Shown here one piece after another: positions 48,640-64,000 of a stretch of 64,000 nt of DNA. Within the stretch, counting starts at the first letter, position 1, and each line of letters starts with the position of its first letter. Location of the stretch: assembly GCA_965140765.1 (NCBI GenBank), contig OZ223309.1, positions 1,003,470 to 1,067,469 of the forward strand. The letters are read 5' to 3'. Made by a program: the position numbers and the translations under genes. A model generated the notes under the pieces. The model was not told where the DNA came from. It did not search any database and worked only from the letters and a program-made list of their open reading frames with translations. The stretch comes from an uncultured Sunxiuqinia sp. (lineage in GTDB: Bacteria; Bacteroidota; Bacteroidia; Bacteroidales; Prolixibacteraceae).

Positions 48640-48715
48640 AGGGGATTGCAAGATGTGTTTTTATGGCCATAAAAACCTTTCACCTTGTCCCGGCACGCCG
48701 GGAGACATTCCCCAT
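48640..48715. other. Putative oriT
   Basis: GCAAGATGT followed by the 20-bp perfect palindrome GTTTTTATGGCCATAAAAAC (48657-48676) and TCCCGGC/GCCGGGA (48688-48703), immediately upstream of the mobilisation and relaxase genes. Confidence 0.65.
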
Positions 48716-59600: not shown

Positions 59601-60465
59601 TCTGTAACTCCAATTCCGAAGAATCTTTCACAACATTTATGCGTTCATTGTCTATCTTCGTGGTTAAGGAATTTATTTCTATAGTGATATTCTCATTTGC
59701 TTTTCTCAGTTCATCTATTTTTTCATCTATATTCCCCAGATGATCATTAAAAGCGGGCACAGATGAAGTATCCGAAGAATTTGATTCATGCATTTCCAAA
59801 TCAGGTCGACTTTCTGTCGACTTTTTTGTCATGTATGAGGAAATTTGTTCCTCATTTTTTTTAATTTGGCTATTTAACTTTACTATCTTTTCAGAAATAC
59901 TGTCAAAAATAATCTTTTGGTCTTCATAGGCGCACTCAATCGCATTATCATAATTCGTAGTAAAAATGTTGTTCCACTTCAAAGAGATTAATCTTTTATG
60001 CAGATCTAGGCTATTCAAAGGCACTCTTTTACTTGCTCTTTTTGAATGTAAAAATTTCAAGCTATATTCATCAGTATCTAATGACTTTTCGATGATAGGG
60101 ATATGTTCTTCGATGTAGGCATCTATTGATTCTCGGAAACCTTTTCTCTTGATATATTGGGAGACAAGATCCAAATATCCTTCTCTGCATATTATATCCG
60201 CAATAATAAATTGTTGATTAAATATTTTTGAAGCTTTAGGAATCCCCAACCTATCAATTCCCTTCATTTTTAATTTGTGCTCTATTTCGGGCTTGTACAT
60301 CTCAATTACCATGTCGCAAAGTAGCTCTGACCAGTTTGGGAAGATATTGCTGATGTTTTTGCTAAAGCCAGAGCCAACCAGCAGTGATACTTTTTCTCTA
60401 TCAAGTAAATTTTTTAACGATTTTAGAGCAGAAACCGGGTTGTCAGATAATATTTTATCGTCCAT
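56620..60465 (-). CDS. Large SIR2-like domain protein (sirtuin NADase plus helical C-terminal region)
   Basis: LLVGSGFS, NWSELL, FTTNYD, IKLHGS and LIGFSGIDPNF sirtuin motifs; 1281 aa. Confidence 0.88.
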   Translation of the reverse strand: MDDKILSDNPVSALKSLKNLLDREKVSLLVGSGFSKNISNIFPNWSELLCDMVIEMYKPEIEHKLKMKGIDRLGIPKASKIFNQQFIIADIICREGYLDLVSQYIKRKGFRESIDAYIEEHIPIIEKSLDTDEYSLKFLHSKRASKRVPLNSLDLHKRLISLKWNNIFTTNYDNAIECAYEDQKIIFDSISEKIVKLNSQIKKNEEQISSYMTKKSTESRPDLEMHESNSSDTSSVPAFNDHLGNIDEKIDELRKANENITIEINSLTTKIDNERINVVKDSSELELQKNRNIIKLHGSIPLDREENFFGFDGDVHKRYVICKDDYQDYPQKHEAFTQLMRITLLQDSFCLIGFSGIDPNFIAWINWVRDIIEKKSYQTANNKEESLNNSFKIYLVDIGNDELTIDKELFFKNHRIVKISLASNEIREFLGTTNREGKVVLKKFLTYLSDNKNNVTEEERIKSYKSIWEELSKSVFGHAMDEEKLIENIDKLWELKAYSKVKNFDVYEQNTSTDFLRYIDRNYKYFSSHEILPFFFKLLLLSLNDSYLIFSMHVIPDQTFEKIKDNVPVPFARPLNLLHIRGTILSNPNLAFDKIFEKKLSKDNDDELMYEKALYHAFNFSFPDLLFHLNNWTPNAHYVALKASLLAQINPKDAYNLLEDFVKDLASFSSLSNQEKINTYYLLLLTRSSVRWERDDKILDEINKLKALGAKDIRNNIEILSDKINKNIDNSIRPYPRGDFDFYHDMSGNDRFLLGVQYVQYLIQSGLFLEVQNARFIDHKDWYPSFKLVFEEFPFPALYYSLQYQDGNFTKRIGQDFVNSEKLNEKLSEIYQSLYRAYISEATLEKIKDSILYFLSEIVAAIPANEWENTFLKIWDLQLREGKQFSEIAFPIHSFVKKSLSYLATNKTIAHIIKSILNNRHKSELAINYLYILSSRKIIKHSEKYLIRTSIKLQIEEMIEEIPTHFIRSMYLLGNLEPIINFKQKTKIKEYLENTDLGKFDSYNIWYVVLIFAQNNVRIINNLKTAILKSKYLFASGVRFDKDGRMSATNEHFIQLRNFTKNKSLSDGIKWSREETLSLYNTLRRELSKIEKWGNRNKILLNFKDLLDEMRIFLLKEEHALKRLTDYEKITEKIDRLLSIEKGEGSLLQRLMDDTEEYYFHALEELTRYLFENSKVSPFENCIELVLSKILSISDPNLLFTLKKVAIWVRELKDEDCLKQYSEKLLLILERYKLHDFNNSYKPAYFLHLSTIAFVLSYWGIKNKVVDFWIEQGRNSRYNIM

Positions 60466-60566
60466 TTTGTAAATATATGATTTAGCAGAATAAAGATATT
60501 GAAATAAAAAAAGAGGATTAAGTTTTTCTGGTTATTTTCTCTTTAACTCAAATTCCTGTCAAATTT

Positions 60567-60727
60567 ATTGATCGCTTCCCGGAACGGTAAAGGGGAACTC
60601 GCTTTTCGTGGCTCGTTTCCTTCGGATGCGTTCATTCCGGTTACATCGGAATGACATGCACCCCGTTGACCTGATCCGGGACAGCTCAATGGTGGTATGC
60701 CAAAAATTTAAGTTTAATGGCGTGCCA
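60567..60727 (+). promoter_or_regulatory. Structured upstream element, copy 1 (before ardC)
   Basis: Long imperfect stem 60567-60595 with 60661-60690, plus second stem 60693-60702 with 60718-60727; homologous to 62541-62714. Confidence 0.7.
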
Positions 60728-60788
60728 GAGATCCCCTTGGTTTCTTCAAGGGTGCCAAAGCAAGTCCGAAAGGCATCGGCAGTTTCCC

Positions 60789-61703
60789 ATGAATACTTCA
60801 TTTGACATTTACGAAATGGTTACCAATCTGATTATCGAACGCCTTGAAAAAGGTGTCATTCCTTGGCAGATGCCGTGGAAAGCCGAAACAGGCTTGCCCC
60901 AGAACATGGTTTATAAAAAGGTTTACCGTGGTTTTAACTTCTGGTTGTTGCTGACCGTGGTCGATCAGTTCGGTTCCCCATTTTTCCTGACCTTCAAACA
61001 GGTCAAGGAGCTTGGCGGGCATGTCCTGAAAGGCGAAAAAGGTTTCCCAGTTGTATTCTGGAAAATCCTTGAAAAGGAAGAGAAAGACGGCGGTATCGAC
61101 CAAATCCCGTTCCTCCGGTACTATACCGTTTTCAACCTGAAACAGACCGAAGGGATCGATGAAAGCAAAATCCCGTCCACGGAAGCCTACGATCACAATT
61201 TTGACCCGATCGGGCAAGCCGAGCAGTTGATCGAATACTGGTCTGATTGTCCCGAGATCAAACTAGACCAGTCCCATGCTTTCTATTCACCTACAGGTGA
61301 CTATATCGGGATGCCAAACCCTCGGACTTTCTTTCAGGACGAGCAATTTTACAGCGTTTTGTACCATGAAAGTGTCCACGCTACCGGCCACATTAACCGA
61401 ACAGGCAGGCATGAAAAACTCCCAGACCACAAGTTTGGTTCACAAGACTACAGCCAAGAGGAACTGGTAGCTGAACTGGGTGCTGCCTACCTATGCCATA
61501 TCACCGGTATCCAAAATGCCACGATTGACAACAGTGCCGCATATATCAAAAGCTGGATCGGTAAATTCAAGGAAGATAAAAAGATGTTGCTGACAGCTTC
61601 GTCCCAGGCACAAAAGGCAGTGGACTATATCCTGGAGCACCAATCCAATCCCAACCGGCCAGCAAGCGCAAACCGGGCAGGGCAATTGGCGGAGGCGGTT
61701 TAG
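60789..61703 (+). CDS. ardC: ArdC-family anti-restriction ssDNA-binding protein with zincin-like domain
   Basis: LEKGVIPW..PW, YRGFN, FLTFKQ...GG.V.KGEKG, LRYYTVFN, HESVH (HExxH), EELVAE; ATG at 60789. Confidence 0.92.
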   Translation: MNTSFDIYEMVTNLIIERLEKGVIPWQMPWKAETGLPQNMVYKKVYRGFNFWLLLTVVDQFGSPFFLTFKQVKELGGHVLKGEKGFPVVFWKILEKEEKDGGIDQIPFLRYYTVFNLKQTEGIDESKIPSTEAYDHNFDPIGQAEQLIEYWSDCPEIKLDQSHAFYSPTGDYIGMPNPRTFFQDEQFYSVLYHESVHATGHINRTGRHEKLPDHKFGSQDYSQEELVAELGAAYLCHITGIQNATIDNSAAYIKSWIGKFKEDKKMLLTASSQAQKAVDYILEHQSNPNRPASANRAGQLAEAV

Positions 61704-61717
61704 CCTTCGCCTTTTTT
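61688..61717 (+). terminator. Terminator overlapping the ardC stop
   Basis: GGCGGAGGC/GCCTTCGCC hairpin followed by six T. Confidence 0.65.
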
Positions 61718-61757
61718 ATTCCAGAAAACCATAGTTGAACAATTAAAATCAAATAAT

Positions 61758-62465
61758 ATGAACCAGTTAAAGAGTTTTACCAACTATATACTTCAGATCG
61801 GCCATAAGTACGGTCTACATTCAGTGTTTGAAGATTTCCTTGAAATGACGGTCTGTACCTTATCCTTAGGGGCAAAAGAAGACCGTTACCTTGAGATTGT
61901 GCGGAACTACGAAAAGCCTGATGCTTACTTGATATCTGAAGCTTTTGGGGCGTTGGTAATGGAGATGGACAATAACGGACAAGGTTTGAAAGACTGCTTC
62001 GGGGACTTTTATATGGAATATATTAGTCACGGGCATAACGGACAGTTTTTTACCCCGGAGCCGGTATGTGAGATAATGGCTAGGATTTCGAACCCGTCCG
62101 GGTTTGGCGAGCGTATGGCAGATTGTTGCTGCGGATCGGGAAGGATGTTGTTGGCAGCAGCAAAAATCAGTCGGGATTCACTATTCTTTGGGGCAGATAT
62201 TGACCGGACGTGTGCAATGATGTGCCTGATCAACCTGTGCTTGAACGGGCTTCTGGGTGAAGTCTGCTGGATGGACACTCTAATGAACCGTTTTTATGCA
62301 GGTTGGAGAATCGAACTTCACCCGGAACATTGTGTCCCATACATCAGGGAAATATCAGAAACCGAAAGTTATATGGTTTGGAGACTACCCGAGAAAAGAC
62401 AGAAAATCATTGATAAACAGGTGGCAAAAGCAGGAGTATCCCAGCAGTTGCTGTTTGAGTTCTAG
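61758..62465 (+). CDS. Short N6-adenine methyltransferase-fold protein (HsdM-like fragment)
   Basis: GQFFTP, DCCCGSGRMLL (motif I), GADID; no NPP(Y/F) motif present. Confidence 0.8.
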   Translation: MNQLKSFTNYILQIGHKYGLHSVFEDFLEMTVCTLSLGAKEDRYLEIVRNYEKPDAYLISEAFGALVMEMDNNGQGLKDCFGDFYMEYISHGHNGQFFTPEPVCEIMARISNPSGFGERMADCCCGSGRMLLAAAKISRDSLFFGADIDRTCAMMCLINLCLNGLLGEVCWMDTLMNRFYAGWRIELHPEHCVPYIREISETESYMVWRLPEKRQKIIDKQVAKAGVSQQLLFEF

Positions 62466-62484
62466 GGGGCTATGCCCCTTTTTT
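62466..62484 (+). terminator. Terminator after the methyltransferase-like gene
   Basis: GGGGC-TAT-GCCCC followed by six T. Confidence 0.6.
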
Positions 62485-62540
62485 GTTCGTATGACTTTTG
62501 ATCAGGTAAAACCACTCCATTTAAAATTGCAGGCAAAGTT

Positions 62541-62714
62541 ATTGATCGCTTCACGGAAAAGTCAAGGGCGGCCTCCCTTGGCCAATAGATCCAACGCTTT
62601 GCCGCACTCCGTGCTCGGTCAGCTTTTTGCCCCAGCAAAAACCAGACTTTCACCCTTGACAAGAATCCGTGATAGCTCAATGACCGGTTACGCCGAAATT
62701 TTAACCGGCGTGCC
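62541..62714 (+). promoter_or_regulatory. Structured upstream element, copy 2 (before 62753)
   Basis: Stem 62541-62568 with 62653-62681, second stem 62686-62695 with 62706-62714; covaries with copy 1. Confidence 0.7.
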
Positions 62715-62752
62715 AGATGCCAAAATAAACCTCCAGGGCAGGAGTAAAATCT

Positions 62753-63115
62753 ATGACAAATACAGCTAAAAAGCTCAATGCTGAAAGTAAGGAACAACAA
62801 AACAAAACTTCTTTGGAAGTTGTGAAAAAAGAAGAAAAAGCAGTTTCCGAAGTTCCCTCATTGGAAAAGCGTATCCAGAAAGTGGAAGATTTGAGCATGC
62901 TCATCGAAAAGTGGCGCAAACTGACGGAAACCCGCAGAAACCTTCAGACCTTTTCATTAGGGGCCGATGGTATGGGGGCAACAATTTTCCTCAGGGACGC
63001 TTCCGGTAAGGAGTTCAAGACTTCCAATACCCCGGTTGTGTTAGCTGTGATGGAAGAAATCAAAACCACACTGGATGGAAAAATTAAAGAGGTTGAAGAA
63101 CAAATCAAGTTCTGA
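62753..63115 (+). CDS. Conserved-looking ICE hypothetical protein
   Basis: 120 aa, coiled N-half, FKTSN motif, own upstream element and terminator. Confidence 0.75.
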   Translation: MTNTAKKLNAESKEQQNKTSLEVVKKEEKAVSEVPSLEKRIQKVEDLSMLIEKWRKLTETRRNLQTFSLGADGMGATIFLRDASGKEFKTSNTPVVLAVMEEIKTTLDGKIKEVEEQIKF

Positions 63116-63147: not shown

Positions 63148-63411
63148 GTCGTTATCGAAATAGAAATTTAGCCACCTCCCTGCAGTATATTATGTCTGGT
63201 CAGTTCAAAAGGTATTGACTATTGGTTTTTTTTTAAATTTTTTAAATTGTAAGGTAGATGTTTTTCTCATTGGTTTCTAAAAAAGAATTGGCTAGTGGTA
63301 AAGAGTCATATTCAATTTTCATTCCAATATAAGATGTTGATAATAAAAAGGAAATCATGCAGTGTACTTGACCATAAATAAATAACTTTATCTATCATAA
63401 AGAATTTGAAT

Positions 63412-64000
63412 ATGAGCATTCTCAATTGGAAAATTTTCAGTTTGAAATATGACCAAAAGGAAACTGGTGCTTTTGAAGATCTATCCTACTTACTTTTTTG
63501 TGCAGAATTGGGCAATCGTATAGGTCTATTTCGTTATAAGAATCAGGCTGGAATTGAAACGGAAACCATTACAAAAGAAGGAGTTGTCTATGGATTTCAA
63601 TCAAAATACTACACCACTCCAATTTCAAGCAATAAAGCTGAAATAATTGAATCAGTAAAAAAGGCCAAGCGAGAAAATCTTTCAATAGATAAAATCTTGT
63701 TTTACCTAAATCAAGAATTTTCAGAAAGTACAAAATTTGGAGTAAAGAAACCAAAATATCAGTTAGAAATAGAAGATGAAGCAAAGAAATTGAATGTTGA
63801 AATAGACTGGCGTGTTCCAAGTCATTTTGAGATACAACTTTCATTGGCAGAAAATAAATACATACATAACCTATTTTTCCAGTTAAAATCTAATTCCGGT
63901 GATTTAATTGAAGAGGTAAAAAGACATAATGAAATTATCCTCGCCCCAATAAGAACAGAAATACATTTTAACGATGAGATAATAAAAATTGACAGAATAG
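63412..64000 (+). CDS. avs4: Avs4 (AVAST type 4)-like antiviral STAND protein, N-terminal nuclease domain; truncated by the window end
   Basis: Not in the ORF track. Manual translation: MSILNWKIF...FEDLSYLLFC...FRYKNQAGIETE...GFQSKYY...ILFYLNQEF...WRVPSHFE, open to the window end. This matches the Mrr-like N-terminus I recall for E. coli Avs4 (NW..F...FE..CYLLFC...FRYKNQSGIET...QSKFY...WRV.S.FE). Confidence 0.82.
   Translation, partial: MSILNWKIFSLKYDQKETGAFEDLSYLLFCAELGNRIGLFRYKNQAGIETETITKEGVVYGFQSKYYTTPISSNKAEIIESVKKAKRENLSIDKILFYLNQEFSESTKFGVKKPKYQLEIEDEAKKLNVEIDWRVPSHFEIQLSLAENKYIHNLFFQLKSNSGDLIEEVKRHNEIILAPIRTEIHFNDEIIKIDRI

Follow-up and report, generated by a model that had tools for sequence, protein, structure and literature searches.

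Promoters that act on single-stranded DNA (ssDNA) have been demonstrated only in enterobacterial plasmids of the IncF and IncI groups, where they form classes 1-3 and carry sigma-70 boxes (PMC12672017; PMC11541004). These promoters of the Frpo/ssi type are large stem-loops in which the -35 and -10 boxes are restored ahead of the operons of the leading region (PMC12672017; PMC11541004), and the existing searches for them depend on sigma-70 boxes (PMC11541004; PMC12672017). For the Bacteroidota, in which the sigma-A consensus consists of TTTG at about -33 and TAnnTTTG at -7 (PMC7366714), a literature search found no description of an ssDNA promoter. The subject of this report is a structured element of about 230 bases that occurs twice in a window of 64,000 nucleotides (nt) from an uncultured Sunxiuqinia sp. 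of the Prolixibacteraceae (contig OZ223309.1), ahead of ardC and ahead of a gene for a protein of 120 amino acids (aa). Its stems are real, and the reading we favour, although with little to spare in confidence, is that it is a promoter existing only in ssDNA, a Bacteroidota analogue of Frpo that drives establishment and anti-defence genes.

A further system with which the element has to be compared is EGeRS1 of the pLS20 family from Bacillus, which likewise comprises long repeated sequences, predicted to be highly structured, directly upstream of establishment/anti-defence operons and has no constitutive promoter (PMC8708921). The EGeRS1 sequences are 325-500 nt long. An ssDNA promoter was rejected by the authors of that work because no promoter was present in the fold and because it is the non-template strand of pLS20 that is transferred (PMC8708921). 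In contrast, a canonical promoter is found in the fold of the element described here, and its template strand is presumably the transferred one.

Both copies lie on the + strand in the same orientation, where the original prediction had placed them. Copy 1 extends from its flank to its last hairpin over 60543-60779 and ends 9 nt ahead of the ardC ATG (60789), copy 2 extends over 62517-62744 and ends 8 nt ahead of the ATG at 62753. The strings TTGATCGCTTCNCGGA (60568 and 62542) and AGCTCAATG..GGCGTGCCAGA (60683-60729 and 62674-62717), pointed out as shared by the two copies, each occur exactly twice in the window, and the latter was present in none of 100 shuffles. A search of the whole source genome revealed no copy beyond these two.

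The anatomy of the element was read from an alignment of 24 copies. It begins with a 5' flank, followed by a stem P1 stacked on a stem P2, an optional inner domain, the hairpin P3, the bases CAGA, an optional hairpin P4, TGCCAWAAWAAG, the hairpin P5 and finally the ATG. The stems had been described correctly before, whereas the extent had been drawn too small: the 5' flank, the optional inner domain, the optional fourth hairpin and P5 have to be added. P1 is formed by the arms TTATTGA..GCT TCCCGGA and TCCGGGA.AGC TCAATG, P2 by GTAAAGGGG and CCCCGTTGAC. In copy 1 the 5' arm of P1 is located at 60565-60583 and that of P2 (GGTAAAGGGG) at 60586-60595, and the 3' arms of P2 (CCCCGTTGACC) and P1 (TCCGGGA.AGC TCAATGG) follow at 60661-60692. 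The corresponding 5' arms of copy 2 (TTATTGA..GCT TCACGGA for P1, GTCAAGGG for P2; 62539-62568) appear in the RNA fold as well as in the DNA fold of the - strand, and its 3' arms (CCCTTGAC for P2, TCCGTGA.AGC TCAATGA for P1; 62653-62683) in the RNA fold. P3 has the general form GGTACGCCA, AT-rich loop, TGGCGTGCC, after which comes CAGA; it is represented by GGTATGCCA/TGGCGTGCC at 60694-60726 in copy 1 and by GGTTACGCCG/CGGCGTGCC at 62686-62714 in copy 2, the latter in both the RNA and the - strand DNA fold. P5, with the loop ARGGCA about 10 nt ahead of the ATG, covaries strongly (CCGA-AAGGCA-TCGG, 60766-60779; CTCC-AGGGCA-GGAG, 62731-62744).

A first covariance model was built from the two window copies and improved afterwards. 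About 140 further copies, 123 of them distinct, come from genomes of Prolixibacteraceae and from sediment and wastewater metagenomes. The first model found about 20 copies, often clustered, in 9 of 61 related genomes, and the improved one detected copies in eight of the 12 species of the genus Sunxiuqinia. An exact-pattern scan of metagenomes yielded 113 stretches; on 80 of these the model recovered 125 copies, many of which do not fit the pattern. Two to five copies per element are typical, and one metagenome-assembled genome of the Prolixibacteraceae carries 11. There was no match in viral contigs. A phylum-wide model search of 400 genomes gave no hit, which is weak evidence of absence as eight candidates per genome were scored. 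A loose pattern scan of genome contigs returned mostly chance hits, only those in L038 and L045 being real.

Across the 123 distinct homologues the proposed stems are paired in 87.4 % of the alignment cells, compared to 28-39 % when the partners are slid, and 30 of the 37 pairs show changes on both sides; none of 500 shuffles reached the observed value on any of five measures. Covariation across homologues, on whose presence the original prediction had made itself depend, is thus strongly positive. The compensatory change from TCCCGGA/TCCGGGA to TCACGGA/TCCGTGA between the two window copies had been read correctly, and so had the change in P3 from GGTATGCCA/TGGCGTGCC to GGTTACGCCG/CGGCGTGCC, where T.G becomes C-G and A-T becomes G-C. 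Helices 1-2 are paired in 88-89 % of the cells with both-side changes in 13 of 16 pairs, helix 4 (P3) in 82.7 %, and helix 5 (P5) in 95 %, all four of its pairs changing on both sides. Examples are the pairs 25-182 (UA 61, CG 34) and 409-445 (GC 79, CG 22, AU 10, UA 5). The support for P3 is weaker than that for P1, P2 and P5 because parts of P3 were fixed in the search pattern. Furthermore, the adjoining pairs covary around a TTG in the 3' arm and its facing AA, both of which are invariant, and the folding z-scores are -3.9 and -4.7.

Some details of the pairing bear on the strand that folds. The 5' arm may lack one or two bases (e.g. GA) without a corresponding loss in the 3' arm. Sporadic G.U and A.C oppositions on the sense strand number 80 and 106, respectively, with three fixed sites excluded, and 42 and 68 within P1/P2, these counts being phylogenetically non-independent. 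For a sense-strand RNA the absence of a G.U excess would be out of the ordinary, and it is in line with the complementary strand being the one that folds, although it cannot assign the strand by itself.

The comparison with Rfam that had been proposed together with the original prediction shows the element to be undescribed as an RNA family. With Rfam 15 on both strands no match to the element reached the gathering threshold, the sole hit in the window being a tRNA, and at E<=10 on 60400-62900 only a chance snoRNA match outside the element was obtained. Candidate motifs in Rfam such as STAXI have several conserved stems and a possible ssDNA function, and are located near anti-restriction, SSB and integrase genes in Bacteroidota. 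The element shares with them the multi-stem plan near such genes and differs in matching no Rfam 15 family. The small RNAs FopS and GibS of Bacteroides, regulators of polysaccharide utilization loci (PUL), are unrelated.

The finding on which the preferred reading is built is located on the complementary strand. Read as its reverse complement, the 5' arm has the sequence of a sigma-A promoter, TTG/TTT-N19-21-TAnnTTTG, and the element opens with eight bases (CAAAGTTA or CAAATTTA) that give TAnnTTTG on the - strand. In copy 1 the -7 box at the P1 base is CAAATTTA on the + strand and TAAATTTG on the - strand (60560-60567), the TAAA at 60588-60591 corresponds to a -33 element (TTTA) on the - strand, and the 5' arm of P1 is the promoter spacer. 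In copy 2 the -7 box is CAAAGTTA on the + strand and TAACTTTG on the - strand (62534-62541), and the - strand has TTG opposite the CAA at 62563-62565, at a distance of 21 nt to the -7 box. Counted over 100 distinct full-length copies, the -7 box at the P1 base is exact in 87 and has at most one mismatch in 94; its six specified positions are conserved to 85-96 %, the two 'n' positions, at 71-78 %, are the least conserved. The -33 element on the - strand, inside P2, is TTG in 39 copies and TTT in 60. It is separated from the -7 box by 19-21 nt in 99 copies, with no spacing outside this range, and the uncompensated insertions and deletions in the 5' arm move the spacing only within these limits. 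On the + strand TAnnTTTG within 90 nt upstream was found in one copy of the 100. The 3' arm has TGGTGGTA in place of a -7 box, and therefore the duplex is without a promoter toward the gene.

The promoter pattern has 432 genome-wide matches in 10.3 Mb (both strands), about 4e-5 per base with real promoters included, and copy 2 has the best arm pairing among these 432. A genome-wide scan of G000 for other hairpin promoters revealed no further family, and a scan for sigma-70 promoters remained at background level. The boxes in the complementary strand are new in this analysis. What had been suggested before, an ssDNA promoter or priming signal or else a cis-regulatory RNA, is supported and not proven by the covariation, the lack of an Rfam family and the - strand boxes; the branch of the ssDNA promoter is favoured because these boxes are placed to direct transcription into the gene when the strand is folded.

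A different repeated element, called family B, was found among ArdC homologues elsewhere in the phylum and was noticed post hoc. It is present with four matches in a genome from another family of Bacteroidota (G167); three distinct copies were examined, and they precede a degenerate ArdC gene with one internal stop and another gene. Beyond the promoter motif there is no sequence likeness to the first element, but the layout is the same. The hairpin base carries CAAATGTA, CAACGGTA or CAACGTTA, i.e. the reverse complement of TAnnTTTG or, with the form CAACGnTA included, of TAnnGTTG, and a CAA is located exactly 19 nt on from the box. The stem covaries (ACTTGAG/CTCAAGT versus ACATGAG/TCATGT), and the 5' flank contains ATGAATA, whose complement TATTCAT is found 13 nt past the hairpin, with 12-13 unpaired bases on each side. 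As the pattern has a frequency of about 4e-5 per base, the same exact placement in two families is unlikely to be due to chance, with the reservation that family B was a post hoc observation. No relaxase was found near the family B copies.

In the proposed mechanism the - strand, which is the template of the genes, would enter the recipient and fold into the hairpin. The complement of the 5' arm would then be the non-template strand, running 5' to 3' from the tip of the hairpin to its base, and the complement of the 3' arm would be the template running on into the gene, as in the geometry of the Frpo type. The -33 element would be within the P2 duplex with P1 as spacer, and the T of the TA in the -7 box would be the last P1 base pair, the remainder of the box being unpaired at the fork. 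The A at -11 would face a C because the conserved U.G of the + strand (80/123) becomes A.C on the - strand. The 5' flank may pair with a stretch of the template located about 12-15 nt farther along, which would give an upstream duplex, a bubble and a downstream duplex similar to a ready-made open complex. Counting the register from the -7 box in the - strand fold, the predicted start is at the A-rich beginning of the P3 loop, about 60702-60706 in copy 1 and 62695-62697 in copy 2, and the 5' untranslated region (UTR) would comprise about 55-90 nt and bear P4 and P5. After synthesis of the complementary strand the 3' arm would stand alone without a -7 box and the genes would be silent; the terminators between the cassettes would maintain this silence, and the boxes in the duplex would point away from the gene.

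The fold of the - strand can be compared with this scheme. In the DNA structure of minimum free energy (MFE) of copy 1, P1-P2 are double-stranded, the -7 box lies in a bubble, and the flank forms a duplex of 16 bp with the P3 loop region, being paired with 60701-60717. The 5' flank is conserved, its common type being ACTCAAATTTCCGnCAAAG. In copy 1 (TTAACTCAAATTCCTGT, 60543-60559, - strand) it would continue the non-template strand past the -7 box, is complementary to the P3 loop and could form a 'downstream duplex' or a pseudoknot; in copy 2 (CCATTTAAAATTGCAGG, 62517-62533, - strand) the part TTAAAATT is complementary to the P3 loop AATTTTAA. Among 85 copies the MFE structure is the flank-loop state about as often as the P3 hairpin. 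Flanks and P3 loops change together among four classes; the complementarity within a class compared to that across classes is marginal and is clear in two of the four.

Compared by description with the Frpo/ssi promoters, the element has in common with them large imperfect stem-loops repeated ahead of anti-restriction/establishment operons of a conjugative element, boxes rebuilt by intrastrand pairing, a mismatched melting region and a duplex without a promoter in the direction of the gene, all of which is here read from the sequence and the predicted folds. Apart from the phylum, it differs in the sigma boxes (TTG/TAnnTTTG with 19-21 nt instead of TTGACA/TATAAT with 17), in the -7 box at the fork of the stem base, perhaps followed by a downstream duplex, and in the extra hairpins P3, P4 and P5 ahead of the ATG. 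Its cassettes are found downstream of the relaxase gene and not in a demonstrated leading region. Homology in sequence would not be expected because the sigma consensus of the hosts differs.

The surrounding element bears on the question of which strand is transferred. The window contains a Bacteroidota integrative and conjugative element (ICE) behind a tRNA gene, in the order integrase (16442), PUL, rteC (33226), TraG (38167), TraM (43977), type IV coupling protein (T4CP, 45956), DUF4099/DUF3945 (47921), a 122-aa gene, relaxase (49168), defence cargo and the cassettes with the structured element; it ends about 5 kb past the window. In all five loci that hold both, the structured element is co-oriented with and downstream of the tra, T4CP and relaxase genes, and in one of them (L220) it begins 93 nt past the relaxase gene. 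A candidate origin of transfer (oriT) at 48657-48703, consisting of a perfect 20-bp palindrome (GTTTTTATGG/CCATAAAAAC) and a GC hairpin (CCCGGCacGCCGGG), was observed in the 180-nt gap ahead of the 122-aa gene and the relaxase, i.e. upstream of the relaxase operon. By analogy to RP4 and F, one would expect the strand that serves the relaxase operon as template to be the one transferred, and this is the - strand required by the model. The sequence ATCCG in the stem, similar to a relaxase nick site, was considered but dropped, since an oriT would not be expected in three copies ahead of genes.

Several points weigh against the ssDNA promoter. That the - strand is transferred is inferred only from the orientation of the relaxase gene, the oriT-like repeats and the analogy to RP4 and F, and if transfer began from an oriT at about 48.7 kb, entry of the cassettes would be late, in the last quarter and next to the relaxase gene instead of in the leading region. 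P3 and the pairing of flank and loop are mutually exclusive, the latter is weakly supported, and the P3 stem would hide the template from about -8 to +1 and must melt. The -33 element is a TTT facing a mismatch in 60 % of the copies, and the two conserved U.G pairs of the + strand suit an RNA equally well. In family B the T4CP homologue (23 % identical), 5-13 kb off, is encoded on the opposite strand. A search for RNA runs of the organism gave none; the contigs from metatranscriptome and other runs, short or genome-like, also span the upstream flank, and because of this coverage they are uninformative for start sites. Finally, EGeRS1 of pLS20, also a repeated structured element before establishment genes, lies on the non-template strand (PMC8708921).

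The leading alternative, which we regard as unlikely though worth serious attention, is that the element in its entirety is the structured RNA leader of a 5' UTR. It would be transcribed from a + strand promoter just upstream, either weak or non-canonical, and would control translation or stability, for example by binding a protein or a ligand, with the - strand boxes coincidental or separate. This reading is consistent with the covarying stems, including a P5 that ends at a fixed distance of about 10 nt ahead of the ATG of unrelated genes, with the conserved unpaired stretches and the possible pseudoknot between flank and P3 loop, with the conserved U.G pairs of the + strand and the folding z-scores, and with the precedent of EGeRS1 (PMC8708921). 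Copies of type 2 even have a fair + strand promoter, TTTG-N20-21-TAAAATTG, just 5' of P1; however, it overlaps the conserved flank and would thus be inside the RNA if the flank folds, and 99 of the 100 copies have no TAnnTTTG on the + strand within 90 nt upstream. The sense strand lacks a G.U excess over A.C, the GA deletion in the 5' arm has no counterpart in the 3' arm, and there is no relative in Rfam. Moreover, a leader RNA leaves the reverse complement of TTG-N19-21-TAnnTTTG in the 5' arm of two unrelated families unexplained.

The ssDNA promoter may also be thought of in a bolder form, which we offer as a tentative and rather doubtful idea. The element could be a direction-switching promoter in the shape of a pre-formed open complex, with a bubble of 12-15 nt around the -7 box between two duplexes: on ssDNA the sigma-A polymerase would fire from it into the anti-defence genes without melting DNA, in the duplex the promoter would be reversed and run antisense across the preceding cassette as an active shut-off, and the two families would have converged on this arrangement.

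Improbable in our view is a single-strand initiation (priming) signal at which the host RNA polymerase or a primase of the element makes the primer for the complementary strand, gene expression being secondary. Frpo is described as serving both as promoter and as primer (Masai and Arai 1997, as cited in PMC11541004 and PMC12672017). With the candidate oriT the elements would be near the 3' end of the transferred strand, and a primer could be extended around almost the whole ICE. But a priming site needs neither the fixed register to the start codon nor repetition before each cassette, and priming is compatible with an ssDNA promoter instead of being its exclusive alternative. Least probable of all is an ordinary duplex promoter firing leftward to make an antisense or divergent transcript next to an unrelated hairpin, such as a recombination module for cassette shuffling: the duplex - strand carries complete -33/-7 boxes, copy 1 faces a SIR2-like gene and the order of the cassettes varies between loci, but in most loci the gene upstream has the same direction and is followed by a terminator, so that there is nothing to drive, and the covariation of P1-P2, for which a single strand including the promoter region is required, is unexplained. 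In copy 1 the duplex boxes of the - strand (TTTA-N20-TAAATTTG, 60560-60591) face a divergent SIR2-domain defence gene starting at 60465, of which they could be the promoter.

The remaining parts of the element are more variable. The optional inner domain of copy 1 (60596-60660) is composed of CCTTCGGATGCGTTCA, a variable hairpin and TGACATGCACC; short variants are without it. P4, at 60734-60752 in copy 1 (CCCTTG/CAAGGG) as an insert between GCCAGA and TGCC, occurs in about one third of the copies, and its stem sequences differ yet stay self-complementary. TGCCA is found twice, on either side of the P4 insertion site. The TGCC ahead of an A-rich stretch is complementary to the GGCA of the P5 loop (60753-60775 and 62718-62740), which could point to a pseudoknot in the 5' UTR or to a site bound there by a protein.

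The ATG follows at a fixed distance of about 10 nt past the element across nine gene families, and the genes behind it are typical establishment and anti-defence cargo: DUF6573 (43), ArdC (33), a family of 120-132 aa (21), RadC-JAB (13) and YspA-SLOG (4), in addition to rarer families such as DUF4326, a small zinc-finger protein and others. In the window these genes are ardC itself (60789-61703, + strand; ArdcN and MPTase-PolyVal with Pfam E-values of 7e-33 and 3e-33) and the 120-aa gene (62753-63115, + strand), which has homologues behind 21 other copies of the element. Most copies are located 50-60 nt past the intrinsic terminator of the previous gene, and each cassette therefore needs its own promoter.

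The interval between copies 1 and 2 is occupied by ardC, a terminator, a 235-aa N6_Mtase-like gene and a second terminator. The strong terminator at the 3' end of ardC (GGCGGAGGCGG..CCTTCGCC, then a T run) lies within 61688-61757. The N6_Mtase-like gene at 61758 starts 38 nt past this terminator without a copy of the element and with no obvious promoter; the pair of ArdC and Mtase-like genes is kept in many loci. Between cassettes with different genes, the terminator of the preceding cassette and the next bases (CCCCTTTTTTGTTCGT) are conserved (L174, L180, L185, L199, L203, L213, L217 and 62464-62495 in the window), which points to modules of terminator, element and gene that are moved as units, probably via recombination between the repeated elements. 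An integron attC site was considered and rejected: the element is fixed to the 5' ends of genes with a terminator ahead, the neighbouring recombinase is an ICE integrase for tRNA sites with an arm-binding domain, and no integron-type integrase or attC core sites were seen.

Directly after the cassettes a 1365-aa open reading frame extends past the window (63406-64000 and L284 1-4100). Chromosomal genes that resemble RND efflux genes by the sizes of their open reading frames begin about 5.7 kb past the window end, and this places the right end of the ICE at about L284 4100-5700. In a further genome from another family of Bacteroidota (G143), a third conserved and structured-looking leader precedes two ArdC genes, which come after an SSB-like gene and a terminator. 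This leader (L307 about 1100-1497, L309 about 1090-1482) is co-oriented with the gene and contains ..GTCAAC..GTTGAC.. and GGTCAGCAAGGG.T.ATGGCGCACCCCATGCCGCTAAAGCGTCATG; no TAnnTTTG was found in it on either strand.

If the element acts as an RNA, it is all the same a large and well-supported new structured motif. If it is a promoter of ssDNA, it would be the first family of such promoters described outside the Proteobacteria. Promoters of this kind account for the expression of anti-defence genes by plasmids that are still single-stranded. As a search rule for early genes of conjugative elements in the Bacteroidota, one could then look for hairpins that carry the host promoter as its reverse complement in the 5' arm, and DUF6573 and the family of 120-132 aa would be marked as candidate anti-defence factors. 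The element would also offer a compact scaffold for studying promoter recognition by an unusual sigma factor, and the strategy itself would be a general one that has evolved independently for each host polymerase.

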